Positions 1 to 36,768 of a DNA stretch of 64,000 bases are shown piece by piece. The stretch's first letter is position 1, and every line of letters starts with the position of its first letter. The stretch is from a virus. Location of the stretch: positions 31,033-95,032 of the IMG/VR virus record IMGVR_UViG_3300045988_078724, one strand, 5' to 3'. The translations under genes were made by a program, and so were the position numbers. Below the pieces are notes generated by a model. It saw only the letters and a program-made list of their open reading frames with translations, did not search any database and was not told the origin of the DNA.

Positions 1-3000
1 GAGTCTGATTTCAAGGATTATTATCGTAAGATTTATGGTCGTGATCCCAATGCAGAGGAAATGGCTGTTTTTCGTAATTCTAATGCTGATGTAGGTAGTG
101 CTATATTTGCCGCCAATATGGGTATAGTAGGATTATCTAACTGGCTTCTTTTTGGTAAGTATATAGGGTTAGGAGGCAAGGCTATACCAGGGTTGGAAAA
201 GAAGCTCAACAAGCATTTATTTGGATTAGGGACGGAAGTTGCGAAGCCGGGAGAGATGGCTATTAAAATAACCAATCCCAATATAGGACAAAAGATAGCA
301 GGCAATGTTTTCAATATCATGAAAAGGCCGGTGTCCGAAGGCTTATGGGAAGAAGGATCTCAAGGTGCTGTTCAGAATACGGCTGAGGAATATGTTAAGT
401 CAAGATATGATAATGTAGCCATGAACGGAGCCGTTGATGTTCTTGATGCTATTTCTGAAGGATTTAAAAAGCAATATACGTCTAAAGAAGGATGGACTGA
501 AATAGGAATCGGTGCTATTATCGGTTCTTTGTTTGGTATGAGGGAAGGCTTCTTTGGGGTTAAAGAGTATAGCAATAGTCAGATCTTGCTGGAAAGGCAA
601 GTGAATGAATACAACAAAGCATCTTCTAATCTTAACACGGCGGCTTTGAATACGTTGAAAAAATCAATGAGTTTAGGGCCTCAAGTTCGTTCCGATGCCC
701 AGTCTATGACTGGCAAGGAGCTTGATGATGCTATGTTTGAAAAGATGTCTATTGACAACCAAATGGGAACCTTAGAGGATTCGGCTGAAAATTTTAGGCA
801 GATGATTGATATGATGCCTATTTCGGAAATAGCCGAAGCTAATGGAATGTCTTTGGAAGAGGCAAAGAAATACAAGGATTCTATTATTGATAATTATAAC
901 AATCGTCTTTCGGATTTCAGATCTGCCCAGAGTTTTGCCGAAGATCTTATAGGTGATGATTCTAAGATTGAGTTTAGGAAATACGTGGCTCGTAATGCCT
1001 TCCTTGGTCTTCAATCAGAATCAAGAATGAAAGACATAGCTTCTGTCATAGAAACGCTTTCGGGGCAGCCTCGCGTGGCGGATGCTCTAAGTACGTTCTC
1101 CCGGCTGTCGGACAGGGCAAGGGAGCGGGCGATGGCTATCCGTGGCATACGGTCAAGAATAGAAGAACTTGAATCCGAAATAGAAGATCTTGCTACCCGC
1201 CCTCGCAACGTAGAAGGGAAAGATCCACAAGCTGAATCCATACAACGAAAAACCAAAGAATTGGGAAGCCTTAGAACCAATTACAATAATTCGTTGTCTG
1301 AGTTATCAACGTTAATAGGAAAAGAGTTTTCGATAGAAGAGCTGGTAAGTAAAACCGAATCTGTTTTATCATCTCCTCTTTCTCCCATAAGTTCACAAGA
1401 TGTGATAGAAGCCTATGATACGCTTGTGGCTTTTGATGATTATTTTAATGTAAAATCAAGACAGGAAAAGAAGTTTACAGCCAAAGACAAAGCCATGAGA
1501 TCCTTGGTAAATGAATACCGAAGAAGTTTGATGGACTATAGGAATATGAATAACTTCTTGTCTAAGATGCTTGATAAAAGATTCTTAGCTGAGGAAAACA
1601 GGGGGTTTTCAAAAGCGCTGTCTTCTCTATGGTCTACTCCTTATAAAGGGGATGACAAGGTTCCTGATTTTGCAGAGTCTAATAAAGTTGGTGAATATGA
1701 CACTGATGAGGTAGTAGATCAAGCTGTGTCAGAAGGTAAGATTTCGGAAGACGAAGCTTGGACTATCAAGGCTTTTATGCATGCTCTTGATAAAGTAAGG
1801 GAAGATAGGATGAAGGAAGCAGAAGATGATATAAAAGAGTCACCGCTTACGGAGTCTGTATCGGATGAAGATTATGAGGCTGCTATGGATAATCCTATTA
1901 TGGTTCCGGCCGTAAGGCAGTCTATAATTGATAAACTATATACAGGTAATGCCGATCTTCTTACTGAGAGAGAAAAAGATGTGTATGATAAATACAAACA
2001 AGATTTTGATGATTATGTATCGTCTTTGGGTGACAGTCCCGTTAATCTCATAAAATCATTATCTGAAAAGGCTGATAGGCTTACAAGTCCGAGATCTGTG
2101 TATGAGGATAATAAAGCTATTATTGATATGGCTAAATCCAATTTGGAACCAGATCAAAGGAAGGAACTTGATGATGCTATTTCTTCGTATGTTGATATAA
2201 TGAACAGACGGGACAAAGGGGAGAAAGTTGACGAAGATAAGCTTGCCGATTCGGTATTTACCATAGAAGATCTTGGCCAGGTTGGAAACATCACGGATCT
2301 CCTTCCTTATATCGAACAAAACAGGATTATTGATAAAGGTCGTATTTCCGAATCTACGTTAAGTAATTTTGGGGAGGATGATGCTAATATAGATTCTCTT
2401 GTAAATGAATTAGACGAATCTGATAATACGCCGGGAGCCAATATAGATAGCGCCCAGAATCCAGAGACGTTGATGGTAAGAAGAATCTCCAATGACGGCA
2501 ATGAAAGGTATGAAATTGCAGGTCTTAGAGCCGATAAATTTATATCTTCTATAAAATCATTGGTTCCTATTCAAATAAGCTCTGAAACGAACGCTAATGG
2601 CACTAAAAGGTATTCTCTTAATATAGGTGGAGAAACGGCTACTATAATTGAATTGCCTTATCATGCGAGATGGTCTATAGACAAAGAATCGGCTCGTGTT
2701 CTTAACCGTTACACAGACGTGTCTATTCAGGACGTGGGTAATTCCTATTCTTTGGTTTATAAGCGTCTTGATTCAGATGAGTTGGTTCCGTACAGAACAG
2801 GTGTTGGATTCGGAGAGAATGAGGTAGATAAAATAGATCAGGAAGCATTATCTTCTTTGAAAAAAGGAGATAAGGTTAATCTCGAAATAGATGTAAATGA
2901 TACCTATAATCAGTCTCTTTTTGCCGAATACAATGATGCTGTTCAGTCCGGCGATAAAAAAAGAATAGAATCTGCTGAGAATAAACTGGTGTCCAATATG

Positions 3001-5622: not shown

Positions 5623-5978
5623 GTATGAGAAGGAGATTTTTTAATGCTGCGGATAATTTCGTGGGAGGATGTTATAATAAGTTATCCAATGAAGATATAA
5701 AAAGGCTTGGAGGAAAAAGACCTTATGTATGTCAGTTTAATAAAATTCATATACATATAGGACCTGTATTAAAAGATCATGATTCTGATGTTAGTTACAT
5801 AATGTTTAATAGTAATTGGAATTATGGTGGTTATGAATCTATGGTTTATAATCATAGCAATAATGGTATTTTTATATTAGGTGAAAACAAAATTGGTAAC
5901 ATAGAAGATCATATACAAGATCTAACATATTGGTACGAATATGATCCAAGCATTAATGAAAATTATTGTTATTTTTAG
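5616..5978 (+). CDS. hypothetical protein (120 aa)
   Basis: ORF overlapping the giant ORF stop by 7 nt; its TAG stop directly abuts the right-end hairpin of TnpB element 1. Confidence 0.4.
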   Translation: MLSMRRRFFNAADNFVGGCYNKLSNEDIKRLGGKRPYVCQFNKIHIHIGPVLKDHDSDVSYIMFNSNWNYGGYESMVYNHSNNGIFILGENKIGNIEDHIQDLTYWYEYDPSINENYCYF

Positions 5979-7337: not shown

Positions 7338-9596
7338 ATGGGTGTCAAATGTCAGATAGAAAAGAAGGAAAATAAAATAAAACGGGTTAAGGCTCCTAAC
7401 GGGGAGCCTTCCGTTCTTTACGAAAGTGCTTTAAAAGTATTAGGAAACAGCGAGCGGGCTCTTCAGGTATGGGCTAAGGCTTACACTCCTGGTTTTTTGT
7501 CGTATTACGGTCATTGGAATAACCCGGCTCCAGGAGAGATGTTTAATACCGATCCCAATGGTGAACCTCTTTTAGAAGACGTGCTGTCGTATATGAAGCG
7601 TCAGACTTATTTTGCTGATCCTTTAACGGCTCAGGATGTTAAGGATGTAAGGGATTTCCTTTTGTCTACTCATTATTTTTTCAATGCGTCTTCATTGTCT
7701 AATGCTATTCTCTTCGATTTTTATGTAGATGGCAGTTTGATACTGAATGAGCAGAAATTAAGGAGATCCGGTTTGTATGATGAAACAGAAATAAGTCGTA
7801 TTTTATCCGATCCTTCTGTTTTAAACGAGGTTTCGACTTCCATGAGAAAGTTAATAGATTCTTCTATTAACGAACATGATAGGGAAAAAGATAATTATTT
7901 TATGTCTATTGACTATCAGTATGGTCCTATTGTTTACAAGGAGGGAGTGTTTAACCAATTTGGTAAAAAGGTACCATATAATCCTTCTGAGCTTTATTAT
8001 GCTATGCGTAAAACAGTAGCCGGCATAAAAAACTTTTCTGAATTTTCATCTGCTTTTGAATCGTTGAGAAACTCATACCCTGAACTGGTTGAGAAATTCG
8101 TTTCTGATAAAGAATTTGCCGAATCTATGTTTGATGAGTTCTCATCTACGAATAAGATTCCGGTAATAAACATAGAAGGGGATGATGTGGTAGAAGGCAA
8201 GAGAAGATCCTTGTCTAAGCTACAAGATCTGTCTTATTACAATCCTGGCAAAATAGAGTTCCTAAGAGCTCGTATATCAGCTTATTTACATAGGGCTAAT
8301 GCCGACACCGAATCCGACTTAAGAAGCATGATATGGGATATAGAAGAGGCTTGTACGTGGTTTGGCATAGATATAATAGGGACATCGGAAACTTATGATG
8401 GCACAGAAGAATCTTTGAATAAGATAGATAATTTGATGCTGGATCTTGATATTTATGTGGCCAGGCATAATGATGTAAATTATGCTCCAACGCTGGCATC
8501 TTCTATAGATGATATTCTTGGTGATAGCACAGATTATTATTTTGGATTATTACCGGAGTATATGGATAATTTGAATATCGTTTATTCTGAATCCGATATA
8601 GACCCAGTAGAGGCATTTGAGAAACATTCATTGCTTAAGGTAGGAGATAATCTATATCAAAGGATCAGCAAAGATGATCTTAACGAGATGTATCAAATAT
8701 CAACAGTATTAGCCAAGCACAACCTAACTCATTTTTCTACTAAAATATATCCTGAATCTTGTTTTAAGAACGGCGTTTTGGATAAAGAGAAAGTACGGAA
8801 CGTAGATAATAATACGCTCATGGATTCCATTAAAAAATACGTCAGATCGTTCATGGATTCTCAAAACACAGAGGACATGATAATGACCAGGATGGCGTTT
8901 GGGCACCCGGCGGTACTTGACATTTCTTACGCGGATATGGATCGGGAGTATAGTCGATACATGAACAAAAAACAAGATAGCGAAAACCCATTATCCTTAT
9001 TCGATTTATACCAATCTTACCTTGACAACAAACTCCATAAAACAAAATTATATGATAATGCCTATAAGTATCTTGACTTCAAACCTGGTCCATCTTTGGG
9101 CCTTATTTCTGATGATCCTGATATTTTGAAATCAATAGAATTATCTTTATCTGGAAAAGACAGGTTGATGTTGTTTGATTATAGCATGACCAGTACCGAC
9201 CCTTCTTTATCAGAATTGTTTTATTTGGAGAAGTATGACCCTTCGTATGCCGGGAATGATTTTGAACACTATTTTTACACCAGGCACCCGTATTTGTTAA
9301 AAGAAAAATCGGGCCCTAATATCGTAGAGCAAGATGGTGTTATAACAGCCGAAGGTATTTATGATAATTTTATAAGAGTAGGTAATAAGATATGGTCTAA
9401 AGTAAGCGAGAGTAGTTCCGGCTCTATCTACCAAAATCTGACAGGAACCGAATCAGAGGTGAAATACGATTCTACTCAGAAGGCTAAGACGGTAGAAACC
9501 GATTACGCTCCATACCAAAACAGATCTGGCTTGACGCAAGATATGATCGTAAGCAAGTCTGAATTGGATGATCTTAACAAATTAGAATGCAGGTAA
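7338..9596 (+). CDS. hypothetical protein (752 aa)
   Basis: Long uninterrupted ORF with protein-like composition; followed by hairpin+T-run terminator. Confidence 0.6.
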   Translation: MGVKCQIEKKENKIKRVKAPNGEPSVLYESALKVLGNSERALQVWAKAYTPGFLSYYGHWNNPAPGEMFNTDPNGEPLLEDVLSYMKRQTYFADPLTAQDVKDVRDFLLSTHYFFNASSLSNAILFDFYVDGSLILNEQKLRRSGLYDETEISRILSDPSVLNEVSTSMRKLIDSSINEHDREKDNYFMSIDYQYGPIVYKEGVFNQFGKKVPYNPSELYYAMRKTVAGIKNFSEFSSAFESLRNSYPELVEKFVSDKEFAESMFDEFSSTNKIPVINIEGDDVVEGKRRSLSKLQDLSYYNPGKIEFLRARISAYLHRANADTESDLRSMIWDIEEACTWFGIDIIGTSETYDGTEESLNKIDNLMLDLDIYVARHNDVNYAPTLASSIDDILGDSTDYYFGLLPEYMDNLNIVYSESDIDPVEAFEKHSLLKVGDNLYQRISKDDLNEMYQISTVLAKHNLTHFSTKIYPESCFKNGVLDKEKVRNVDNNTLMDSIKKYVRSFMDSQNTEDMIMTRMAFGHPAVLDISYADMDREYSRYMNKKQDSENPLSLFDLYQSYLDNKLHKTKLYDNAYKYLDFKPGPSLGLISDDPDILKSIELSLSGKDRLMLFDYSMTSTDPSLSELFYLEKYDPSYAGNDFEHYFYTRHPYLLKEKSGPNIVEQDGVITAEGIYDNFIRVGNKIWSKVSESSSGSIYQNLTGTESEVKYDSTQKAKTVETDYAPYQNRSGLTQDMIVSKSELDDLNKLECR

Positions 9597-9818: not shown

Positions 9819-10016
9819 ATGAGAATCAGTACCATCAAACGTAACAACAGCATTCATCTTATGCATAAAAACATTATGAATGATTTAGGTCAATTAAGAA
9901 CTGTAGTTTCAAAATCCTATATTTATAATCTGATACAAAATCAAACCGGATTAAGTATCAGAACTATATCCCATGTCTTGAATCACACAAAAGAACAGGA
10001 TACAGATTCTTTGTGA
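9819..10016 (+). CDS. small HTH protein (LacI-type helix-turn-helix-like motif), 65 aa
   Basis: TGLSIRTISHVLNH resembles the LacI/GalR HTH signature (GVSxxTVSRVLN); sits in a 700-bp otherwise non-coding regulatory region. Confidence 0.35.
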   Translation: MRISTIKRNNSIHLMHKNIMNDLGQLRTVVSKSYIYNLIQNQTGLSIRTISHVLNHTKEQDTDSL

Positions 10017-12861: not shown

Positions 12862-13356
12862 TTGATCATGTTTTCAGATTTGAAGAAAGGGTTTCAGGTA
12901 CATACCCTTGATACTAATACAGTACCTAAATACGAATTGGGAAAGGTAGTAGCCGTATCCGAACCCAGGTATCTTCCTCCTCAGCCAGGTCAGTATCAGG
13001 CGATGCAGACCCGCGTGGTGGATCTGACGGTAGAGCTCACTGGCGAAACCAAGACCTATACGGTCCCGGAATCCCAGAATGTGGCTAAGGCTATGGGCAT
13101 AACATTATCTACCAGCATAGATCCGATTATGAACGAACTGAATGCTATAAAAAACACCAGTCAAGACATAATAAACAGCGTAGATGCCCATCGTGCCAAG
13201 ATAGAGGCTTGTGAATCTATATTAGAAGATATCAATCCGGCATTCAAGCAAACGAGAGAGCAGGATCGTAAAATAGCTGGTATAGAAAATAAGGTGAATG
13301 ACCTTACTGATTCATTCGAAGATTTAAAGAAGTTAATTGTAGAACGTTTGAAATAA
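12862..13356 (+). CDS. hypothetical protein (164 aa) with C-terminal coiled coil
   Basis: ORF; C-terminal heptad-like NELNAIKNTSQDIINSVDAHRAKIEACESILEDIN. Confidence 0.5.
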   Translation: MIMFSDLKKGFQVHTLDTNTVPKYELGKVVAVSEPRYLPPQPGQYQAMQTRVVDLTVELTGETKTYTVPESQNVAKAMGITLSTSIDPIMNELNAIKNTSQDIINSVDAHRAKIEACESILEDINPAFKQTREQDRKIAGIENKVNDLTDSFEDLKKLIVERLK

Positions 13357-13363
13357 GTATAAT

Positions 13364-13732
13364 ATGATAGTATATGATTTAAATTCAGGACACAGAGAAT
13401 ATCCTGGATATGACGAGATAGAAGACAGACGAGGTGGAGGCAGAGGCAGAAGCCGGCGTTCTGATGGGACGTACATGGGGTATGGTGGTGGTATTTACGA
13501 CCATTACGGTATGCATGAGAAGATGAAGGAAATGGAAGAGCGCGAAAACGAGCTGGAAGAAAGGGAAAGAAGGCTCGAAGAGCGCGAACGTCGTCATGAA
13601 ATGGAGGACCGGGAATACCGGAGGATGGGTTACGAATCCTACCCGACCGATTACTATGGAGACGACAGATACTACGGTGACGGACCTCAGATGCGTAGAG
13701 GTCGCGGACGTGGCAGAGGTCGTTCTTATTGA
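13364..13732 (+). CDS. RGG/RG-rich low-complexity protein with central ER-repeat helix
   Basis: RRGGGRGRSRR ... ERENELEERERRLEERERRHEMEDREYRR ... RRGRGRGRGRSY; ends in TGA that is in frame with the next ORF. Confidence 0.5.
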   Translation: MIVYDLNSGHREYPGYDEIEDRRGGGRGRSRRSDGTYMGYGGGIYDHYGMHEKMKEMEERENELEERERRLEERERRHEMEDREYRRMGYESYPTDYYGDDRYYGDGPQMRRGRGRGRGRSY

Positions 13733-14119: not shown

Positions 14120-14277
14120 GATCCAGATCCAGGTCCTTCCGGTGGTGCGGGAGCCATAGTAAAAAATATGATTCCCGCATTCCCGTTTTTCCCGTTTGGA
14201 AAAAAAGGAATAAAAATATTATACCGGTCGGCGGGCAATAGAATACCCGTGGCCGGTTTGTTTCACAGAACTTTTTT

Positions 14278-15664: not shown

Positions 15665-15722
15665 TAACAATTAATTTAAAACAAATCATGGAATTAAAAG
15701 ATTTTAAAATGTGGTTAGAGTA

Positions 15723-16550
15723 ATGACAAAAGAAGAGTTCGAATCAACAATCGAAGAAGATATTAAATTCGTTGAGGGATTCAAGAATTTCTTAAAACAT
15801 GATGATGCCACGAGGATAGTAGAGCATATCAAGTCTGTGTTAGAAGCATCAGTAGATTACTACTATCCTAATCATCCTGAAGTAGAATTTGAAAAAGATT
15901 TTAATATACAATACGATGTCAATAATATCTTGAACAAATACGGCCACACCGAAATGGGTATGTATAAAATACAGCTCTATATAGAGAATATTTTGGGTAG
16001 TATTCAAAACAAGAAGCCTGTAGACGTGGGAGAAGTCTCTGACGGATACCACACTTTCAATGAATTGTATCGGTATCGCATGTTGTATAACGCTGCCTTC
16101 TTTAATCTATTAGCCAGAAGCGGACAGGTTGAAGTTTGCAAATCAAGGAGACACAGCGACGGAGAAAAATGCTTCGGTTCTGATGATTGGTTTATTGTGA
16201 TGGCGATCCTACCTACCGGTCAGGTATCTAATCACTATGAAAGCAAATACTGGGATTTGTTTGATGTTCCTGAAAGAGAAACCGCTTTCGAATACGATGG
16301 CCATACACCAAATGAAGCCTCCGACAGACTTGAAAAGTATCTCAAACTGCCTCGTCATGGCATGACATTCGAACAGGCTTTAGAACGGCTTAAATTAGGT
16401 CGTAAGATAAAAAGAATCGATTGGGGTAAAAAGTATATCTGTATGTTTGACGTAAATATATTGATGATAGATACAGGTCAAAAAGTAGCATCAAATTGGA
16501 ATCCAACCGAACATGATATTATGTCTAATGACTGGGAGATTGCGGGATGA
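15723..16550 (+). CDS. two-domain protein: unknown N-terminal domain fused to C-terminal DUF2829 / Tad2-like (Thoeris anti-defense 2-like) domain
   Basis: C-terminal ~80 aa MTFEQALERLKLGRKIKRIDWGKKYICMFD...ASNWNPTEHDIMSNDWEIAG matches the DUF2829 pattern (M.F.EAL..LK.GKK..R..W ... AS...D.LA.DWEI) as I recall it; ATG at 15723 preferred over listed GTG 15711. Confidence 0.5.
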   Translation: MTKEEFESTIEEDIKFVEGFKNFLKHDDATRIVEHIKSVLEASVDYYYPNHPEVEFEKDFNIQYDVNNILNKYGHTEMGMYKIQLYIENILGSIQNKKPVDVGEVSDGYHTFNELYRYRMLYNAAFFNLLARSGQVEVCKSRRHSDGEKCFGSDDWFIVMAILPTGQVSNHYESKYWDLFDVPERETAFEYDGHTPNEASDRLEKYLKLPRHGMTFEQALERLKLGRKIKRIDWGKKYICMFDVNILMIDTGQKVASNWNPTEHDIMSNDWEIAG

Positions 16551-17148: not shown

Positions 17149-18339
17149 ATGAAACTTGTTGAAAGACATATAGTTAAAGACAACTGGTTTGAGGATATAT
17201 GCCTCAAATCTGGTTTGTTGTACAATTATGTTCTTTACAACATTCGTCAAGGAGTCTTTTCTGGTAACTACTTAAAGGAGTTTGATTTATCAAACAAACT
17301 TTGCAAAGAAAACCAATTTGATTTCAGGAATTTACCTAATCATGTTTCACAGCAGGTGATTAAACAGGTATTTAAAAACATAAAATCCTGGATGAGATTA
17401 AAGAAAGATTTTGAAAAGAATCCTTCGAAATACGGTAATCATCGTCCTCATCTTCCTTCGTATAAGAAGGGCAAGAAACAAAACATGGTTGTTTTTACTA
17501 ACTGTGATTGTAGGATAAAGGATGATGGTTATATCCATTTTGTCAAAAACACAATTAAACCGATCAAAACAAATGTAAAGAAAGATGAATTAAAACAAGT
17601 TAGAATCATACCTCAAGCCACCTGTTATGTAGTAGAGGTAGTTTATGAAAGAAAGGAAATTGATCTTGGTTTAGATAAAGACAATTTTCTTTCGATTGAT
17701 TTAGGATTGAATAATTTATGTTCATGTATTAGCAATGTAGGATTAATTCCTTTCATTGTAAACGGACGGATTATGAAATCATTTAATCAATGGTACAATA
17801 AGAAGAAAGCTAAGTTGATGTCTTTTGTTGGTGATAGAGGATCTTCAAATAGGATAAGAAGAATCACTTTGTTTAGAAATTGTTGGATAGAAGACAAGTT
17901 GCATAAGATAAGCAGATATATTGTCAACTTCTGTAGATCAAACAACATAGGAACAATCATCATCGGATTAAATAAGGAATGGAAACAGGAAATCAATATT
18001 GGTAGGCGAAATAACCAACATTTTGTTTCTATTCCTCATTCAAAGTTAATAGATAAGATTGTTTACAAAGCAAAGTTATTAGGAATCAATGTTGTTATTC
18101 ATGAAGAATCCTATACATCAAAGATAGATCATCTTGCTTTTGAACCTCTAAAGAAACAGGAATCCTACTTAGGAAAAAGAAAGAAACGTGGATTGTTTCA
18201 AAGTTCAATTGGAAAACTGATCAATGCAGATATTAATGGATCAATTGGAATAGCAAGAAAAGTAATTGGTGATTCTTTTATTGGAAAGATAATCGATAGT
18301 GGATTTGTGTTTAATCCAATTAGAGTAAATACTTTGTGA
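17149..18339 (+). CDS. tnpB: TnpB-like RNA-guided nuclease (IS200/IS605 OrfB family), 396 aa, diverged paralog of 6024..7286
   Basis: [10 protein letters not shown] (RuvC-I), [49 protein letters not shown] (RuvC-III); ~50% identity by eye to TnpB-1. Confidence 0.85.
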   Translation: [396 protein letters not shown]

Positions 18340-19610: not shown

Positions 19611-19694
19611 GCTGAACTTGACGATTTTTCGTCAGATTATAATTTTTTTTTTCATATTATTTTTAAGCCATCAGACTGAGAAGTTAGGTGGCTT

Positions 19695-19754: not shown

Positions 19755-22700
19755 ATGGTATCAACGTGTATTATTAAAAGAGATAATAAAAAGAAAGTTG
19801 TTTCTGTCTCTACCAGATCAGGGGACAGGTCTATGTTGTTTGATAAGATAGCATCTATTCCTCTTATGGAGAACAGGGAACGGGCTACTACTGTTTTTAA
19901 AACCGTATTTTCTAATAAGTTCTTAAAGGATTTTGGCGACTGGAGAAAGAGAGTGCCTATCAACAAACCGGCTTATAATAAGGTTAAATCCAACATTGAT
20001 CTTATTCCGGAAGCTTATAGAGAAAGGGTACTGGATAAGGCTTCTAAGATGAGTAATCCTGTTCTTGTATCAAAATCAGATGCAACTTATGGGATTCAAG
20101 AATCAGGCTTCGGATTCTATAGCCAAGATCTGGGTGATAATATTATGTTGGTGGATGCTATGATCCCATCAAGTATTTCCGTACCGGAAGAACCAGGAAT
20201 AGACGCCGGGCAGTATTTACAAGATGCTATATCTTCGGACTTCACTCCCGTATCTGTGGTACAGGATAAGGGTGTTAATTATATGGTTATAAAAGACGGT
20301 CTTAAGATATTTAGCCCAGAAGAGCTACCAGAAACAGATTCTAATCCTGTGGGTGTAACGTATCAGACTGGAGAGCCTCGTTTGTTTTTCATGAACGATC
20401 GTAGTCAATTATTTGAAGATTACGGAGAAGCTCTTCGCTCTGGCGGGAATGATATTAGAATAGGATTCTTATCAGGAACCGTTCAAGAATCTACCGTGGA
20501 TGGCGTGGAAGACATTACTTACAAAGCTGGAAAGTATGTTCTTAATAATCCCAAGTCTTTTATACCGGTCATGACCGCTTCTGCTTCTACTTCTTTATCA
20601 ACAAAAGGCGGGATAATTAACTACCTTATAAAGAAAGGTCTTTTGTCAGGATCTAAGATATTCGATTCTGAAACAAGAAGCTATTATCTTACAGGAGAAG
20701 GTTATACAGGACAAATTAGACTTTTCAATTCAGCCTTATCATACACCGAGCTCCGTAATCATTTTGGTTCCGATGTTTCCATGAACGACCAAGGTATGAT
20801 AACCATAAGCTCGTTGGATAACAGTAAGGTAACTATGAGACTCGCCACCGGAGGAACGGAAAGGGTTAGCAAGGAACAGATAAAGAACGATCTTAAGTCA
20901 GGAAGATACAATGAATTGGACGCCAAGTACGATCATTTTGATGCGCTTGTAGTTTCATTCATATTAGAAGACAACGATCTTTATGCTGATACTAAAGCTA
21001 AGATCGTATCAGATTATAGCAGGCAGGAACGTGACCAACGAAATTCTATTGTCGAGATACTGAAAACTCTTGGCGTTAGCGTCATAGGTATGACCGACTA
21101 TATAGAGAAGTACCAAACCAAATACGGGCACGAACCTTCTGCTAAGGCATTGGCGGATATTGCTAATAACGTAATAGCAGTTGGTGAAGATGCTACTTTA
21201 TCTGATTTAGTAGAAGAAACAGCCCACTTCCTTGTAGAGGCATACAGAGATCAGAATGCTGTTGAGGCTGTTCTGCAAGATGTAGAAGGTACGGAAGAGT
21301 GGAACCAGTATGCAGGTCAGTATTATAATACATACGGTAAGGTATATGAAGGAGCTGAGCTTGATAATGCGGTTAGGAGAGAAATTCTTGGAAAGATCCT
21401 CGCCAGGGAGATGCAGACCGGCACAGCACAGGCGCCGGTAGAGCCCACCTCCTTCCTGGGGCGCGTCCGGCAGCTTCTCTCTGGAATCGTGAGCTGGCTT
21501 AAATCAGCTTTATCAACCCAAAGACAAGATTTGAATAACGTTATTAAAAACATTCGTGATCTTGCCATTACTGACATAGATAAAGGATTTGACACTTCTC
21601 TGTTAAAGGATAATGACTTTACATTATACTCCCTTTCTTCTATGAACAAGAACAAGTTTCTTGAGTCTAAGATCCTGGCATTAAGGAAAACATTAAGAGA
21701 CTTACGTCAGATAAGCTCTGATAGGGCTGTAACTACGTCTATGACCCTTGCGCAGCTTAAGACCATAGAAGATAAGATAAATAAAGTAGAGACCGAAATA
21801 GACAAGAATGAGATGGCGGCTGCCATGAACAGCATGATCTCTACAGCCGAAGCTCAGGTCAGATACTTAAGCAATGTGGTGAACACCATCCTTCATGGTG
21901 ATACCAAAGACGGTAAGCTTCACTTCAATACCAATGATCGAAAGAACGTAGATATTATCAACAATCAGGTTCTTCCGATCATGAACGATCTTCGAGGATA
22001 TATCCGTAACAGAAGTACCGAATTTGATGAACGTGAAAAGCAGGATTATACAAATAGGATCAATACCGTCATTGCCGACATCAATGGTATTCAGTCTGAT
22101 ATTAAATCAGTACAAGACCTTGATGAAAGTACGTTGCTTGATAAGTTAATGAACGAACTTCATGTGCCGGCAGATAAGGTAAAGAGAGTAAAAGAATTTT
22201 TCGACAAGGTTCAACACGATGTTTCTTGGATAAGTAGGTGGTTTGGTATATTAGAGCATTCTTCCAGTCCGTTCAATAACGCTCTTGGAGCTATGATTGC
22301 CAAAGACAATTACAATGCGATGGTGAATGCCCAGCCCGCCATATCCGACTTCCTGGCATATGCTAAAAAGCATGGTTTTAACAAATCTGAATTTGAAAAA
22401 CTGCTTCAGAAAGTAGACGGCAAAACTTCTAATTACCTTCGTAGTGCTCTTGATATGGCTAAATACGATCGTAATAAGAAGCTGGCGCAGATGCGAGCGT
22501 TTGCGACTGCCATGAACATAGAGATATCAGAAGAAGAAATTGGTGATGTGGTTGACAATAACCGTAATTACGTATTTAAAAGAGAAGTAGTTGACAAGGA
22601 TGGAAATACGGTTACTGAAAACGCTAAATTCAAACCATCGTCTGATAGGGTTAATACCGATATTTTTACCATCGAGCAGGAAAAGATCTATACGGAACAG

Positions 22701-25700
22701 ATGGAAAAGTGGGATGCTGAAAATTCGGAACTGGAATTTAGCGAAAGTTATGCCACAAGAATGGAATCCATATACAAAAAGGCTGAAGAAGAATTAGGGC
22801 ATCCGGTTTCTCAAACAACCAAAGAATACCTTAATGCCCTATCCAGGCAAAAACGGATATTGAGGCAGCCTTTTATTGATAGCGGTGGTAATTTTGATGA
22901 GGTTGCCTATTTTAAAAGCAGCAATTACGAAGAAGAAGGACTGCTTCGTAAACAACGTAAGGAAGCAGCTTCAGAATACATATATGTAGGAACCAGGAGA
23001 GTGGAAAAAACCGGCGACCAACTTAAGATGGCCAAAGAAATACAAGCCATAAATGAAGTTTGGAGAAAAGAATCAAATAATGCCACTAATGCCGTATCAG
23101 AATCGTTTTTGCAAAAATTAAGAACGATTCAGAGCGAGTCGGGAGGAGAAGCTGCGCTGAAGACACTTATGTTGGGGGGTCACCTGTCATTCAACGATCG
23201 GTTTTGGAATGACGTAGAATCGGAACAGTCGGCGCGTACCGAATCAAATAACAAGGCTTCGTATCTTAAAATGGCGCATGATATCATTAGTTCTACGACA
23301 AGTGATAGAGATGCGACTGACGTGGACTCGATTGTAAAAGATATAGAAAAAAATAAGGCCATTATCAAGGAAATAATCGGAAACAATCGCGATGTGGCTG
23401 ATATCGGAGAAATTAACGAAGCGACATTTACCTTATCTGAAAGAGATGCTTTTAGGGCCGCATCTGAAGCTATTGAAGCCGATTACGCTATCTTAATAGA
23501 TTATGCTAAGATGGTGGGTCTTGAAGATATTGATAAGTACCTTACTAAAAGCAGTAAGGCTGAAAACGAAGTAAATCAGTCTTATTTAAATGCTCTTGCT
23601 GACTCCAAGGAAGTGGAATGGAAGTTCGTACAACGTCATACTACGGCGAAGAAAGCAAAAAGGATTCAGGCTTTAAGGGATAAGCTGTTTAAGGCTGCTG
23701 ATAACCGATATCTGTTTACCGTATCTGAAACCAACTACCTGTCAGAAAAGCTTGGTATAAGCAAAGAATTAGACGGTAGAGATTTTAGGAATGCTGTTAA
23801 TGCTAAGATGGCCAGCTTATTTTTAAATAATACAAGGGAAGAGGGCATAGAAGAGGCCAATGCTATTGTTAATGAATTTGCCAGGAGCCAGGTTTTTTCG
23901 TACTATAAACGCATGACTCCTACCGGATATGCGGCTATGATCGACAAAATCGGTCGAGGTGAGATAGATGTGGCGCAGATGGTTAAGGACGTACAAAACG
24001 GTACATCCACCCAAGATTATGGCATGGACATATCGTACCTGTCTTTCGATCCTGCAAGGGCATGGGTGGCTGAATCTGAAGCCGAAAATAGCGGCCGTAA
24101 TCCTGATTTTGTAAAAGATCATGGGTATGGTCATCGAATGCCTAAGAAAAGCCTGTATCGTGATGAATCGTATTTCAATGACTTTGGTATCAAGTATGAT
24201 GCTGGCGGTAATGAAGTTGCTACTAAAAACGTAGAGCAGTGGAATATGATTCAAAAACTCAAGGAAATAAAAAGACAATCCCTTGATCTATACAAAGAGC
24301 AGAGTCCGAACCTGTATGCTATTCCACAGATATCCAAACAAGACATAGAACGTGTAGAAGGATTGGGTATTAACTTCAAAAATACAGTTCGTAATTTTGT
24401 ATCAGATTTGTGCCTGGACAGAGTAGACGATTCTTTATACGGTAAAACCAGGCAAGGAGAAGTGTATGATCCGGAAGACAGACTTAGGTCTATACCTAAA
24501 TACTACATATATGAATTGGAGAACCAAGATGATGTATCTCACGATTTTGGCTACTCTTATTCGATGCTTATGATGCAGTCATCGTTATACAACGAAAAGC
24601 AGAAGTCTATAGAGCTTGCCCAAGGACTGGAACAGATGTTACTGAACAAGCAATTTGAAGGCGGTAAGAAGGCTGAAGCAACCCAAGCATATCAGATGTT
24701 CAGGGACTTCTTCAACGATCATTATTATGGCATTAGGATGAACACCAAAAAACTTACAGTGAACATCGGAGGATATACGGTAGACCTTACAAGAATTATG
24801 ATGGCTGTTGAAAGGTTTATGTCGGTCATGAACCTGGCACTGTCTCCGTTTGTGGCAGCTACCGGCGCCTTAACAGGTCATATCAACCTCATCATGGAAT
24901 CTGCCGTAGGACAGTATATAAGCAAAGACTCCCTTAAATACGCATCGGCTGAGTTTTCACGCCTTGCGCCATCTTGTATAGCAGAAACCGGAGACATAGA
25001 TAGGAAAAGCAAATTATATGTCATAGGTGAGAGAATGGGGATATTCAATATCCGAAATCGTATGTATGGTGCCGGATACAATAGAGCGGCCAGGACCTTA
25101 ATGCGTTCACCTATGTATGCTTTTATGGAAATCCTGAACTACCCTCTTGATCCGCAGGTTATGATTGCTACTATGGACAATGTTCGTTATTACAAAGGCC
25201 GGTTCTACACGTTCCAAGATTTCAAGATGGAAAAAGAACGCAATAAAGAACAGAGTACCATAAAAAGAGAATGGAACGCATTAAAAGATCGTACTTTATG
25301 GAGTATGGTAGATGTCGTGGATGGGAAGGTGGTTGTAAAGCCCGGATCGGGTGTTACTGTTGAGGAAGTTGAAACCCAGATGGCTATAACCAGGAATCAA
25401 GTCCGTAGCTTGTCGCAGATATGTAACGGATCTTTGAATGAAGAAAACCGAACTGCCGCATCGCGCAACTGGATAGCCAGGTTCATGACCGCCCACCGAG
25501 GATGGTTGGTGCTGGCGGCTCAACGTCTGTGGAAAAGACGTGGCTTCAATTTCCAGACAATGCAAGAAGAGGAAGGACTGTCAATTACGTTAAAGAATAT
25601 GATAGCCAAAACATTTAGCCTGGCTTCCGAGTCTGGTATGAAAAACATCATAGATGCCTGGAACGAAAATAAAGACAATATGAATGAGGTAGAGAAAACC

Positions 25701-26177
25701 AATCTCAAACGCCTCAGTGTCTATGCCGGCACGTTCCTTATCATGCAAGCCGTATCTATGCTTCTTGCCGGATGGCGTGATGATGATGAAAACGAAGAAA
25801 GCTGGCTTACTCAATTTGGATCCTATGTCGGATTCAGAACCATAAACGAAATAGCTTCACAGATGCCGTTTATTATGGAGCTTAACGTTGTAGATATCAT
25901 TAACGACCCGTTTGTTATGGGAAGGAAGCTGAAGGATCTTACCGATCTTAGGAATTATTCACTTGATAAAGTAACATCCGGCACATACAAAGGAGAGTCT
26001 AAGCTATTTAGGCAACTCGCCAAACAGACGTTTATCAAACAATGGTATAATATCAAGACGCCGGAAGACATAGCGCGCGCCTATAATTGGTGGCAGCAGA
26101 CGAACAACAAGTCAATGATGTTCTTCATTGGCGCCACTCCTGATTCGGAAGGAGACGATGATGTTAGTTACAAATAG
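19755..26177 (+). CDS. giant protein (2140 aa), likely virion/ejected or tail-associated; no catalytic motif recognised
   Basis: 6.4-kb uninterrupted ORF; searched for DxDGD-type RNAP motifs, none seen. Confidence 0.75.
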   Translation: MVSTCIIKRDNKKKVVSVSTRSGDRSMLFDKIASIPLMENRERATTVFKTVFSNKFLKDFGDWRKRVPINKPAYNKVKSNIDLIPEAYRERVLDKASKMSNPVLVSKSDATYGIQESGFGFYSQDLGDNIMLVDAMIPSSISVPEEPGIDAGQYLQDAISSDFTPVSVVQDKGVNYMVIKDGLKIFSPEELPETDSNPVGVTYQTGEPRLFFMNDRSQLFEDYGEALRSGGNDIRIGFLSGTVQESTVDGVEDITYKAGKYVLNNPKSFIPVMTASASTSLSTKGGIINYLIKKGLLSGSKIFDSETRSYYLTGEGYTGQIRLFNSALSYTELRNHFGSDVSMNDQGMITISSLDNSKVTMRLATGGTERVSKEQIKNDLKSGRYNELDAKYDHFDALVVSFILEDNDLYADTKAKIVSDYSRQERDQRNSIVEILKTLGVSVIGMTDYIEKYQTKYGHEPSAKALADIANNVIAVGEDATLSDLVEETAHFLVEAYRDQNAVEAVLQDVEGTEEWNQYAGQYYNTYGKVYEGAELDNAVRREILGKILAREMQTGTAQAPVEPTSFLGRVRQLLSGIVSWLKSALSTQRQDLNNVIKNIRDLAITDIDKGFDTSLLKDNDFTLYSLSSMNKNKFLESKILALRKTLRDLRQISSDRAVTTSMTLAQLKTIEDKINKVETEIDKNEMAAAMNSMISTAEAQVRYLSNVVNTILHGDTKDGKLHFNTNDRKNVDIINNQVLPIMNDLRGYIRNRSTEFDEREKQDYTNRINTVIADINGIQSDIKSVQDLDESTLLDKLMNELHVPADKVKRVKEFFDKVQHDVSWISRWFGILEHSSSPFNNALGAMIAKDNYNAMVNAQPAISDFLAYAKKHGFNKSEFEKLLQKVDGKTSNYLRSALDMAKYDRNKKLAQMRAFATAMNIEISEEEIGDVVDNNRNYVFKREVVDKDGNTVTENAKFKPSSDRVNTDIFTIEQEKIYTEQMEKWDAENSELEFSESYATRMESIYKKAEEELGHPVSQTTKEYLNALSRQKRILRQPFIDSGGNFDEVAYFKSSNYEEEGLLRKQRKEAASEYIYVGTRRVEKTGDQLKMAKEIQAINEVWRKESNNATNAVSESFLQKLRTIQSESGGEAALKTLMLGGHLSFNDRFWNDVESEQSARTESNNKASYLKMAHDIISSTTSDRDATDVDSIVKDIEKNKAIIKEIIGNNRDVADIGEINEATFTLSERDAFRAASEAIEADYAILIDYAKMVGLEDIDKYLTKSSKAENEVNQSYLNALADSKEVEWKFVQRHTTAKKAKRIQALRDKLFKAADNRYLFTVSETNYLSEKLGISKELDGRDFRNAVNAKMASLFLNNTREEGIEEANAIVNEFARSQVFSYYKRMTPTGYAAMIDKIGRGEIDVAQMVKDVQNGTSTQDYGMDISYLSFDPARAWVAESEAENSGRNPDFVKDHGYGHRMPKKSLYRDESYFNDFGIKYDAGGNEVATKNVEQWNMIQKLKEIKRQSLDLYKEQSPNLYAIPQISKQDIERVEGLGINFKNTVRNFVSDLCLDRVDDSLYGKTRQGEVYDPEDRLRSIPKYYIYELENQDDVSHDFGYSYSMLMMQSSLYNEKQKSIELAQGLEQMLLNKQFEGGKKAEATQAYQMFRDFFNDHYYGIRMNTKKLTVNIGGYTVDLTRIMMAVERFMSVMNLALSPFVAATGALTGHINLIMESAVGQYISKDSLKYASAEFSRLAPSCIAETGDIDRKSKLYVIGERMGIFNIRNRMYGAGYNRAARTLMRSPMYAFMEILNYPLDPQVMIATMDNVRYYKGRFYTFQDFKMEKERNKEQSTIKREWNALKDRTLWSMVDVVDGKVVVKPGSGVTVEEVETQMAITRNQVRSLSQICNGSLNEENRTAASRNWIARFMTAHRGWLVLAAQRLWKRRGFNFQTMQEEEGLSITLKNMIAKTFSLASESGMKNIIDAWNENKDNMNEVEKTNLKRLSVYAGTFLIMQAVSMLLAGWRDDDENEESWLTQFGSYVGFRTINEIASQMPFIMELNVVDIINDPFVMGRKLKDLTDLRNYSLDKVTSGTYKGESKLFRQLAKQTFIKQWYNIKTPEDIARAYNWWQQTNNKSMMFFIGATPDSEGDDDVSYK

Positions 26178-26305: not shown

Positions 26306-26352
26306 GTTTTCTTACCGGTTCTCAGTCAGAGATGATAGGGAACCGGTTTCTT
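26306..26352 (+). terminator. terminator candidate
   Basis: accggttc-tcagtcagagatgatagg-gaaccggt 8-bp stem followed by ttcttttgtt. Confidence 0.35.
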
Positions 26353-26444
26353 TTGTTATGAAAAAAAATAGTATCTTGCAAAAAAAAAATGAGAAGAAGA
26401 TATCAAAATAATGCTAAACTATATGAGTATAAGATAGTTAGCAA

Positions 26445-27125
26445 TTGTATAGGGGGGGGGTAATCGTAGAAGGAAAGAAAGTAGGCACCATTCCACAGGG
26501 CGGGCAATTTATCTTTCTGTCTAAAAAAGAACGGCTGGATTCCATAAGTGTCCAAGGCGGTGTTCCAATGGAAGATAGGCAAGAGATCGATAGTCAGGTT
26601 GATACGACAGAGGAATTGCTTGAACAGGATTCGGTGGTTCTTGCTATTGCTTTAACAACCTCTCCTTATTATGGATTTAGAGTAAGTGTGATAGCACCTG
26701 ATGAGTTTACGCTAAGAACAACCAATAGGATTAATAGAACCTTTTTAATAACAAGCTTTACTCCACCTGCTGCTATATACGGTGTAAACTTTGGTGATCC
26801 TATTGTCCTTAATTATGATAGTTACCAATATGAGATGCCAGATCTTGTAATTGATGGACCTCATGATAGAATAGTTAGGGCAGATCCTAATCTTACTTGG
26901 GTTGTAAGATGTACAGACGCCGACTTTAAACCTTTGCCATATCCAGAATCATGGTCTGGCCAAGGTTTAAATTCTATGTTCTTATCAGATATGAAACGTC
27001 TTGCTCCTGGTGATCATCATGTATCATATACAGCTTATATTAATTTGGACTTGATAAATGATGGCGGAAGTAAAGTTCATACTGAATATCTGATATTAGA
27101 AAAAACACTTAATTTTACGATATGA
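26445..27125 (+). CDS. hypothetical protein (226 aa), candidate phase-variable (G9 tract at 5' end; +1 G fuses it to upstream ATG 26389)
   Basis: Listed with TTG start; with G10 the ATG at 26389 (MRRRYQNNAKLYEYKIVSNCIGGG) reads through into this frame. Confidence 0.5.
   Translation: MYRGGVIVEGKKVGTIPQGGQFIFLSKKERLDSISVQGGVPMEDRQEIDSQVDTTEELLEQDSVVLAIALTTSPYYGFRVSVIAPDEFTLRTTNRINRTFLITSFTPPAAIYGVNFGDPIVLNYDSYQYEMPDLVIDGPHDRIVRADPNLTWVVRCTDADFKPLPYPESWSGQGLNSMFLSDMKRLAPGDHHVSYTAYINLDLINDGGSKVHTEYLILEKTLNFTI
26452..26460 (+). repeat. G9 homopolymeric tract (candidate slipped-strand phase-variation site)
   Basis: aggggggggg in a genome otherwise poor in G runs; sits at junction of a 24-codon ATG-initiated leader ORF and the TTG-initiated 226-aa ORF. 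Confidence 0.7.
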
Positions 27126-27126
27126 C

Positions 27127-27171
27127 AACAATCCCCAACCGTACGCCTATTGTATGGTTGGGGATTGTTGT
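27127..27171. terminator. bidirectional terminator hairpin between convergent gene blocks
   Basis: caacaatccccaacc-gtacgcctattgtat-ggttggggattgttg, 15-bp perfect inverted repeat between + ORF end 27125 and - ORF end 27215. Confidence 0.55.
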
Positions 27172-30893: not shown

Positions 30894-31250
30894 TCATATT
30901 ATTCCTTCCAAATTTACTTTAATAGAACCATTTATGGTTTTAATGCTCCCATCTATGGTTGAAATCACATCATCTATATCATTTATAATGCCTTCCATGT
31001 CATCAACCACCTCCTCCATATCAGTTACAGCCCGATCTGATTCCCAATATCTTTCTGAGTCTTGTAACGATTCCGGTATATTATCTCTCGCCTCCGTCTC
31101 TTCATCTAAAATCATATCAATATCATCTTTGGCTGAATTTATGTTGTGCTTTAACTCCGATAACTTTGATTTGATGTATTCAAAATCTGTTTTATACTTA
31201 TTTACATTGTTAATAACATCTAATATTCTTTTTCTTCTCTTGTTGTTCAT
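30894..31250 (-). CDS. acidic coiled-coil protein (118 aa)
   Basis: ORF, Asp/Glu/Ile-rich. Confidence 0.4.
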   Translation of the reverse strand: MNNKRRKRILDVINNVNKYKTDFEYIKSKLSELKHNINSAKDDIDMILDEETEARDNIPESLQDSERYWESDRAVTDMEEVVDDMEGIINDIDDVISTIDGSIKTINGSIKVNLEGII

Positions 31251-35079: not shown

Positions 35080-36768
35080 TTATTTTTTGTCATCTCCTTT
35101 TAACTTCTTTAAAGTATCTGCAATCGGAAGCTGATCAATGACTCCCAATGCCGGAGCGACGGTCTTGACAACATTGTTAAGGAAATTACCGGTACTGTTC
35201 TGACCGCCGTCAAATACCGTGATATTTCCGAGGTTAATGTGCTCAAATGCTTTAACCTGTTCTCCAGCAATTTCTTTCCACTGATTAACCATCTTGTACT
35301 GGATGGCGATCTGAGGATTGGATTCTGCTGCTTCCACCATAGCCTTAAATCCGTCGGCTTCTGCCATTAACGACTTTTTCTTACCTTCGGCTTCTGCCTC
35401 CAGCTTCATCTGAATAGCTTTTGCCTCTGCCTCAGCTTTTGCCAAATGTGCTGCTGCCTCAGCCCGGCGTTTGATCTTCTCGGCCTCGGCATCAGCTTGC
35501 AAGATAGCCTCTTCCTTCTGGGTTTCAGCCGGCACAATCTTTTCAGCCTTAAGCGCAGCCTGAACTTTCTTAGCCTTAGCTTCTTCCACTTCTTTGTCGG
35601 CAAGCTCTTTTGCTGTTTTTACAGCCGCTTCCGATTTAACTTTTTCTTCTCCGGCCTTCTTCTCTGATTGAGCTTTGATGATCTGTAGTTCTGATACTGA
35701 CACAGCAACCTCCTTCTGGGCATTGTTGTATCCTATAGACGCATTTTTCTCAGCCTTCTTAATCTGAGCTTCAGAGTCTTGTATTGCTATAGCTGCTTCC
35801 TTGTCAGCTTCAGCCTTATTCTTTCCGACTTCTTCCATCCTTTCAGCCTCGGCTTTATTTACTTCAAGTTCTGCCTTAGATCTTACGATCGCCGATTCCT
35901 TGTCGGTTAAAGTTTTTGCGATAACCGCAGCCCTGTCTCTATCTGCTTGAGCTACACCGATCTGTTTCTCTTTATCGGTTAAAGCTAAAGCTATTTCTTT
36001 TTCTTTCTTCGTTTCAGCTACTATCGTTTCCTTTTCTTTTTCAGTACAAGCAATTTGAATCTCTTGTTCTTTTTTGGTATTAGCTACAGCCGTTTCTTTC
36101 TCCTTCTGCTGTACAGCAATCTTAATAGCACCCAGCTTCTCCTGTTCTTCGATATTAGCCTGTGCTTCGTTCAGAGCCCTACTTTCGGCTTCCTTACCAA
36201 GGTTCATAATATAACCGGCTTCGTCTCTAATGTCACTGATGTTGATGTTCAGGAGGTAAAGACCTAACTTATTAAGCTCGTTATCAATGTTCTTTCTTGC
36301 CTTATCTAAAAACTCATCCCTGTCAGAATTAAGTTTTTCGATCGTCATTTCGGCAATAATCAAACGCATTTGACCGTAAACGATGTCCGTAATAAGATTT
36401 TCAGTAGATTCGGTATCCATTCCCAAAAGTCTTTCTGCCGCATTTTGCATGATTTCGGGATTTGTACTGATAGCTACTGTAATGGTTGTAGGTACATCTA
36501 CTCTAATATTCTGAGATGACAAAGCACCGGTAAGCTTGCAATCTATTTGCATAGGCTCCATTGACAAAACATCATAGCTTTGAATAATAGGCAAGACAAA
36601 TGCCGCTCCACCATGATATAATTTCGCCGACTTCTTTTCCCCACCTGTCTTACCGTAAACAACCAAGACCTGATTAGGCTTACATCTACGATACCTTGAT
36701 AAGACTCCGATGATTGTTAAAATAATCACTACAGCTAAGATAGCTGACACGTACATGATTGTTGTCAT
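35080..36768 (-). CDS. flotillin-like SPFH/band-7 protein (FloT/YqiK-like)
   Basis: N-terminal TM, SPFH domain, long Glu/Ala/Lys repeat coiled coil, C-terminal NPQIAIQYKMVNQWKEIAGEQ flotillin tail. Confidence 0.8.
   Translation of the reverse strand: MTTIMYVSAILAVVIILTIIGVLSRYRRCKPNQVLVVYGKTGGEKKSAKLYHGGAAFVLPIIQSYDVLSMEPMQIDCKLTGALSSQNIRVDVPTTITVAISTNPEIMQNAAERLLGMDTESTENLITDIVYGQMRLIIAEMTIEKLNSDRDEFLDKARKNIDNELNKLGLYLLNINISDIRDEAGYIMNLGKEAESRALNEAQANIEEQEKLGAIKIAVQQKEKETAVANTKKEQEIQIACTEKEKETIVAETKKEKEIALALTDKEKQIGVAQADRDRAAVIAKTLTDKESAIVRSKAELEVNKAEAERMEEVGKNKAEADKEAAIAIQDSEAQIKKAEKNASIGYNNAQKEVAVSVSELQIIKAQSEKKAGEEKVKSEAAVKTAKELADKEVEEAKAKKVQAALKAEKIVPAETQKEEAILQADAEAEKIKRRAEAAAHLAKAEAEAKAIQMKLEAEAEGKKKSLMAEADGFKAMVEAAESNPQIAIQYKMVNQWKEIAGEQVKAFEHINLGNITVFDGGQNSTGNFLNNVVKTVAPALGVIDQLPIADTLKKLKGDDKK

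Follow-up and report, generated by a model that had tools for sequence, protein, structure and literature searches.

Does the length of a G run near the 5′ end of a small phage gene decide whether that gene is expressed? The locus that raises the question lies in a 64,000-nucleotide stretch of viral DNA, called the window here (IMG/VR record IMGVR_UViG_3300045988_078724, positions 31,033 to 95,032); coordinates below are window positions unless another locus is named. A gene downstream of a giant virion protein gene is broken off after 24 codons by a stop lying immediately behind nine consecutive G, and a first-pass annotation, made from the letters alone, proposed that such a run is a slipped-strand switch. 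We consider it probable that the run is a polyG contingency locus, working by strand slippage, at the 5′ end of a late-module gene that is not essential, and that the gene is off in the window.

In the mechanism that we propose, polymerase slippage during phage replication would lengthen or shorten the tract, for the most part from G9 to G10 and back. A G10 tract, or an interrupted one that keeps the frame, would let translation from the ATG at 26389 run on to a 245-aa tandem Ig-like protein (on). With G9 the ribosome would meet a TAA right after the tract and make a 24-residue peptide only (off), so that presumably no functional protein results. Each population would carry, or quickly regenerate, both expression states.

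The tract, its frames and its start codon

A run of ten A occupies 26380-26389, and its last A is the A of the ATG at 26389; among the loci fetched, this A10 run is specific to the arrangement in the window. From the ATG a plus-strand segment of 24 codons, MRRRYQNNAKLYEYKIVSNCIGGG, runs to a TAA (26389-26463 with the stop) and has the N-terminus found in 245-aa homologues. The G9 homopolymer (26452-26460, plus strand) makes up codons 22-24, and the TAA at 26461-26463 abuts its 3′ end with no gap. An overlapping plus-strand ORF of 226 aa (26445-27125) has a TTG start in the ORF list, and its frame is entered by adding one G: a G10 version fuses the ATG to this ORF as a single 245-aa gene, of which the body (26460-27125) supplies codons 25-245 (VIVEGKK...NFTI) and the stop. 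The first-pass annotation had already named the A10, the ATG, the G9, the TAA, the 226-aa ORF and the fusion by one G, and its coordinates held throughout, which establishes the frame logic.

It had also called G9 exceptional for an AT-rich genome. The run is indeed the sole G or C run of seven or more in the 64-kb window (37.5% G+C), but 9 of 100 dinucleotide shuffles of the window hold a G9 or C9, and a chance origin by composition alone is not negligible. The case for the tract is therefore made from its position and its conservation in relatives, not from its rarity. Part of that case is codon usage: GGG is the rarest Gly codon of the genome (13.9%), yet the run is retained in three diverged alleles, from which we conclude that it is kept against codon bias. 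The string G(n)TAAT, with the stop directly after the tract, is conserved in distant family members as well.

A protein search gave 227 homologues of the fused protein, and we tallied length and start in the best 120 clusters of these. About 106 of the 120 are 242-249 aa long, most of them 245 aa, and start MRRR[FY]..YKIVSNCIGG; the other 14 are 221-227 aa and start at the TTG or just past the tract. We read the shorter products as gene calls on out-of-frame tracts. Judged from this comparison the ATG at 26389 is the real start, because most homologues are 245 aa and begin MRRR[FY], and the single-frame gene is the normal form.

Genomic context

The gene upstream (19755-26177, plus strand) encodes a giant virion structural protein of 2140 aa and is the last large gene of the late/structural block; its place ahead of the polyG gene, also noted in the first pass, is borne out by the ORF list. 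The protein matches phrog_37651 'virion structural protein' (1.9e-75) and is 98% identical to a 'structural protein' of phage csAssE-Sib. Identity to the virion structural proteins of Cellulophaga phages phi17:2 and phi4:1 is lower, about 22% across 87% of the protein, and parts of crAss-like cr52_1 and others match as well.

The flanks of the window match GenBank phage csAssE-Sib (151 kb, human gut) at 94-95% identity; the locus of that phage holds two other MRRRF-start genes and lacks the polyG gene. We regard the phage as probably crAss-like from this similarity, since ring, muzzle, BACON and tail-lysozyme proteins are annotated in csAssE-Sib; the ring, muzzle and BACON tail hallmarks are absent from the 64-kb window itself, and the crAss-like annotation comes from csAssE-Sib. 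The host is probably a member of the Bacteroidota, and GTDB genome representatives contained no relative, so that prophages offer no pointer to it.

The likely terminator of the giant gene is a hairpin (26314-26347, plus strand; -19.6 kcal/mol, z -3.5) with a U-rich tail, UUUCUUUUGUU; it lies ahead of the polyG gene and is conserved in csAssE-Sib and other relatives. It is followed by a promoter-like TATCTTGCAAAA (26372-26383, plus strand), which resembles the Bacteroidota -7 element TAnnTTTG, lies 6-17 nt before the ATG and has one match in the whole window. A conserved TATCTTGCAAA motif stands about 10-20 nt before the first MRRRF gene in csAssE-Sib and in related loci (L001, L030, L054, L058-L063), and in a distant crAss-like contig (L056) every polyG gene has TATCTTTG..CAAAA in front of it. 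We infer that the TATCTTGCAAA motif is a promoter, and its position would imply a very short leader.

At the other end, a strong hairpin lies between the convergent genes (27125-27171; -35.1 kcal/mol on the plus strand, -30.1 on the minus strand, z -8.5). The first-pass annotation had the gene ending at a convergent terminator. The very stable hairpin agrees with this, but it has no U-tract and a consensus terminator scan gave no call there; we take it as a likely bidirectional terminator.

Several other genes of this phage group were noted in passing. The window carries a TnpB/IS605 OrfB-type gene (17149-18339, plus strand) with OrfB_IS605 and Cas12f1-like TNB domains. TnpB copies are found near the locus elsewhere (L057 4622-5854, L059 4520-5752, L056 11244-12383), and these elements appear mobile within the group because their place and orientation differ among relatives. 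A 279-aa protein (15711-16550, plus strand) with a WDGH domain (5.7e-36) and a Tad2-like (Thoeris anti-defence 2) domain (6.9e-11) is a candidate anti-defence protein. A 562-aa protein (35080-36768, minus strand) has SPFH/Band 7 and flotillin domains, an unusual cargo for the replication-module region of a phage.

Tract length in related phages

Tract lengths were taken from assembled consensus contigs in IMG/VR, ENA/JGI and Logan. Stretches were found by exact-flank and anchor scans and then by a wider one that looked for G9 behind an MRRRF start. The exact-flank and anchor scans of IMG/VR and ENA/JGI contigs returned G10, G9, G8 and G12 as well as interrupted 10-mers. In all there were about 72 unique related stretches, 35 on and 37 off. 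G9 accounts for 32-33 of them and G10 for 27-28; G8 and G12 were each found once and G11 twice, while six or seven tracts are interrupted in frame and one or two out of frame. G10 and the in-frame interrupted tracts open the 245-aa frame, and G9 leads to the stop after 24 codons. Off contigs came from ERR13898685, ERR10744939, ERR11457581, ERR11457203, SRR33660375 and ERZ28595211, among others, and an on contig from ERR13909659.

For the allele of the window itself, the exact 226-aa off product was found on 154 public contigs (225 index blocks) and the exact 245-aa on product with the same body on 76, an off:on ratio of 2:1. Of these two widespread states the window has the commoner, so its G9 is no private error. 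The tract is also present in the same place, with the same 5′ module, in a diverged allele (P0122-type) that is 41% identical over its whole length; here we counted G10 five times, G9 nine times, G11 once and two tracts interrupted in frame. A third allele (P0121-type) has G10. Its protein shares 56% of residues with P0001, and P0001 in turn is the nearest full-length homologue of the window protein, with 97% identity.

These counts support the proposed slipped-strand switch: G9 and G10 are about equally frequent, G8, G11 and G12 occur, and the length heterogeneity across populations that the first-pass annotation had suggested looking for is there at the level of assembled contigs. As is looked for in a contingency locus, G9 exceeds the seven or so G or C of a length-variable homopolymer in a coding region or promoter, its length differs between close relatives whose flanks are the same, and the change of length toggles the frame of an otherwise intact ORF.

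One locus (L097, IMG/VR 3300045988_124887) has G10 together with a separate 1-nt deletion in its A-rich codons 6-8, giving MRRRFEIMLNYMSIR and then a stop; because of that deletion its polyG gene is off by a different lesion.

Control homopolymers

Library PCR and several sequencing platforms are prone to errors in long G runs, and the true tract might be G10 everywhere, with G9 a product of homopolymer errors in sequencing or assembly. The sole G12 does come from a contig with 1.1x coverage. The identical G9 product, however, is present on all those 154 contigs from many independent runs and assemblers, and consensus calls of this kind would require more than 50% erroneous reads.

Neighbouring homopolymers bear on the same point. 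An intergenic T10 upstream of the giant gene (19643-19652) is T8, T9 or T10 in relatives, which makes it a poor control, and the adjacent giant gene took its place. Since this T run varies, a variable homopolymer is no peculiarity of the G tract, and unconstrained homopolymers of the phage group seem also to drift in length. The last 4 kb of the giant gene holds a G6 at 23174 and an A7, which serve as control runs; for G-specific error no essential gene offers a homopolymer equal in length to G9. In 76 alignments (230 kb) this 4-kb region shows no 1-nt homopolymer indel, the G6 is invariant in all 76 sequences, and the 18 gap openings are nearly all multiples of three.

A second kind of control is a 205-aa gene that sits between the giant gene and the polyG gene in most relatives and is absent from the window. 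It is a homologue of csAssE-Sib WOZ57324 and has a comparable design, ..ATA GGG ATG GGG GTA AAT.., in which five G are followed by TAA in the -1 state. The G5 run (for example near 2323-2360 in L058-L063 and at 8493-8535 in L001) varies in length, with 4, 5, 6 or 8 G. Among 49 unique loci it has 6 G in eight, 4 in one and 8, which is in frame, in two, so that it differs from five in 11 of the 49. This variation in an accessory gene, set against the invariant G6 of the essential one, fits selection rather than chemistry; a contrast between constrained and unconstrained sequence is what would be expected of real mutations filtered by selection. We regard error as the source of G9 as very improbable.

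Further 1-nt indels of the 205-aa gene recur about 137-144 codons in, apparently at a nearby T8 run, and several loci carry larger deletions; in all, the gene is disrupted in about 40% of the 49 unique loci. By hand count, all four on/off combinations of the polyG gene and the 205-aa gene occur at similar frequency.

State changes and selection on the gene

Neighbour-joining trees were built on the gene with the tract removed. At least 9 on/off changes (Fitch minimum) are needed for 29 tips, against 9.9 for random labels, and in the second allele 5 for 16 tips, against 5.5, giving at least 14 independent changes among 45 contigs. On these trees the on/off state shows no phylogenetic signal. 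The recurrent change of the tract between near-identical genomes is seen directly where genes without a single substitution differ in it: two loci with G10 (L037, L042) and two with G9 (L043, L044), and a pair with G10 (L022) and G12 (L027). The state changes far faster than point substitutions build up. From such comparisons of consensus contigs we infer that switching goes on within populations and is reversible.

The frame behind the tract is preserved in genomes that are off. In a set of 54 loci the body of 220-222 codons is intact in 23 of 24 off loci. There are no nonsense changes among at least 99 substitutions in 23 complete sequences, where 4.1 would be expected under neutrality (P about 0.016). 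Because of these two results, the off genes appear not to be decaying. The gene body has a pN/pS of 1.55 when all pairs are pooled, 3.55 among on-on pairs and 0.89 among off-off pairs, with peaks in codons 165-225.

Since many alignment positions vary, a diversity-generating retroelement was also considered. It was rejected: the variable sites have no A bias (the majority base in variable columns is G in 30, A in 25, T in 23 and C in 21) and no template repeat was found in the window. A second copy of the polyG gene was likewise not found in the window. An excess of nonsynonymous change without adenine bias points to diversifying selection and not to a retroelement.

A different reading of the same data is that the run is a mutational hotspot with no function as a switch, in an accessory gene that is often useless, the off genomes being recurrent loss-of-function mutants that are about to lose the gene. 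The locus is unstable, as the disruption and absence of the 205-aa neighbour show, csAssE-Sib does without the polyG gene, and both the ratio of 0.89 among off-off pairs and an off state as common as or commoner than the on state would fit a gene that is often dispensable. Mere loss, on the other hand, sits badly with 9-10 G retained in three diverged alleles in spite of the codon bias, with off loci that, but for one, carry no second lesion, with the lack of nonsense mutations in the gene, and with the ratio of 3.55 among on-on pairs. Nor do off lineages persist as clades, given the missing phylogenetic signal. We think a hotspot of this kind quite unlikely and keep to the contingency locus.

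The protein

An AF2 model of the 245-aa protein (pLDDT 92.2) shows tandem Ig-like beta-sandwiches. In a profile search, residues 1-62, which span the tract, form one conserved module. The model puts a beta-strand at residues 12-17, ahead of the tract, so that a protein begun at the TTG would be missing part of the first domain. The profile search of 1.84 billion representatives returned a narrow family of 43 clusters. The 1-62 module also heads other small MRRR-start proteins and recurs as internal repeats in BACON-domain proteins of 650-1270 aa.

Pfam and PHROG gave no hit to the window protein, other MRRRF proteins or the csAssE-Sib cassette proteins, and a PDB profile search with the window protein found no relative. 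Neither PEGA (PF08308) nor BACON (PF13004) exceeds the gathering threshold in the window protein and its close relatives; in the large distant proteins that share the 1-62 module, BACON passes the threshold and PEGA remains below it. A search of viral contigs for relative loci with P0121, P0138 and P0157 found none.

The evidence suggests a putative, dispensable virion-surface or host-interaction protein, because of the late-module position, the BACON-domain relatives, the promoter-like TATCTTGCAAA and a pN/pS above 1. The first-pass annotation had proposed a receptor-binding or host-range factor, and such a role is indirectly supported by the Ig-like fold, the location in the virion module, the same pN/pS and the distant BACON-protein relatives of the N-terminal module. 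The presence of a factor of this type would sometimes be favoured and sometimes be costly.

MRRR[FY]-start genes and arrays

The small genes behind giant virion-protein genes all start MRRR[FY] (ATGAGAAGAAGAT..). They stand singly or in tandem, in arrays of one to three, and their content differs between close phages. Examples are the polyG gene itself (window 26389) and genes at 8493-9110 and 9115-9564 in L001 and 1821-3735 in L054. The window has a second such gene (5625-5978, plus strand; 117 aa, MRRRFFNAADNF..), right after a 1853-aa ORF (61-5622). Cassettes may be gained and lost by recombination between the repeated MRRR[FY] 5′ ends.

More elaborate is the distant crAss-like contig L056 (Logan SRR33454295 contig 4076), in which four genes start M[RIA]RRFYN and have a G run near the 5′ end; they adjoin CrAss_Ring_1 and CrAss_Ring_2 genes. 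The runs, on the minus strand, are G9 (14195-14203), G9 (13656-13664), G10 (13063-13072) and G11 (9894-9904). As assembled, none of the four genes is in frame. A change of one G opens ORFs of 167, 183, 184 and 243 aa; three of the genes need one G more and one needs one G fewer.

The window gene, the 205-aa neighbour with its G5 and second indel site, and the four L056 genes are leads towards a wider reading, namely that crAss-like phages carry arrays of MRRRF-start Ig-like virion or tail genes, each with its own promoter and its own 5′ G tract, that are phase-variable in combination. We put this forward tentatively, as a possible extension that we do not at present favour.

Recoding at the tract

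The G9 template might itself be expressed, by a -1 ribosomal slip or by RNA-polymerase stutter, with tract length setting the level. A -1 slip of tRNA-Gly on GGG GGG GGG beside the TAA would give the identical protein, IGGGVIVE. Recoding would also explain why G9 is the commonest state for the window allele, why off is as common as or commoner than on, with four of four genes off in L056, why the frame behind G9 is intact and under selection, and why G8, G11 and G12 are rare, as if only G9 and G10 were tolerated.

As a programmed -1 frameshift site, the tract was rejected. Formally G GGG GGG is a slippery heptamer (X XXY YYZ), but there is no downstream stimulatory structure (a fold of 26389-26480 has z -1.05, with no stable hairpin past the tract) and no Rfam family or element. 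The frame is single in about half of the relatives and in all but one or two of the interrupted tracts, so that the out-of-frame arrangement is not conserved. The L056 genes need opposite shifts, and no single direction of slippage fits them. Against recoding there is also the stop itself, UAAU being an efficient, strong termination context, and to our knowledge the documented cases of bacterial transcriptional slippage involve A or T runs. We hold recoding of G9 to be unlikely, and compare the slipped-strand contingency locus with known systems below.

Comparison with known systems

Campylobacter phages have hypermutable polyG tracts (Sorensen et al. 2021, Cell Rep 35:109214; as reported in PMC12823448 and PMC10877375). 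There, as here, a long G run inside coding sequence varies in length and shifts the frame; in the Campylobacter phages this is reported to give phenotypically different sub-populations, with host-recognition genes involved. Those phages are Eucampyvirinae on Campylobacter, whereas here we have a crAss-like phage, probably of a Bacteroidota host, and metagenomic consensus only. The polyG protein described here has no sequence relation to the Campylobacter phage target genes as given in those accounts.

A preprint by Gomez, Barrick and Waters (2025, PMC12633550) describes homopolymer contingency loci in T-even phages and others. Slippage there causes reversible frameshifts in non-essential genes such as agt and rIIA, which the authors view as bet-hedging against host defence. 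Most of those tracts consist of 6-9 A, and mutants occur in reads at about 1e-4 to 1e-3, whereas the tract here is G9/G10 and both states are found at consensus level, in about half of natural assemblies.

Bacterial contingency loci (polyG/polyC in Neisseria, Haemophilus and Campylobacter; PMC6321876, PMC5084427) resemble this one in having a 5′-proximal run of 8-11 G that puts the frame on or off, and concern surface and host-interaction genes under diversifying selection. Here, unlike there, the carrier is viral, with phage-encoded replication machinery and no cellular mismatch-repair context. Programmed -1 frameshifting and transcriptional slippage (dnaX, IS elements, the phage tail chaperone G/GT) also use a slippery homopolymer to join overlapping frames, but dnaX-type systems have a fixed, conserved out-of-frame layout and usually a stimulatory element, whereas the present family has many in-frame alleles and a search for an element of that type came up empty.

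At the level of the protein, T4 Hoc-type decoration proteins and crAss-like BACON proteins resemble the window protein in their tandem Ig-like fold, here a predicted one, and in belonging to a structural or late module. BACON-domain proteins carry distant relatives of the N-terminal module as repeats, while the window protein reaches no Pfam family above threshold.

By analogy with these systems the mechanism would be that of a classical simple-sequence contingency locus, already known in phages. The population-level support for this polyG switch is unusually strong. In the literature searched we found no paper tying crAss-like or other gut Bacteroidota phages to homopolymer switches, and a search on csAssE gave unrelated papers only.

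Biological meaning

There is a practical warning in these results: gene callers split or truncate the polyG gene in about half of assemblies.

CrAss-like phages are among the most abundant human gut viruses. Earlier work on how they persist beside their hosts has drawn attention to phase variation in the hosts. If the phage, too, carries a hypermutable switch, crAss-like phages would hedge their bets as well. Hundreds of public assemblies show the putative switch, the gene that holds it is under diversifying selection, and it may recur in arrays. If the array reading is true, a single phage lineage would hold a combinatorial set of surface or host-interaction proteins, the viral counterpart of the phase-variable capsules of Bacteroidota, and this may help explain the long-term coexistence of crAss-like phages and their hosts.
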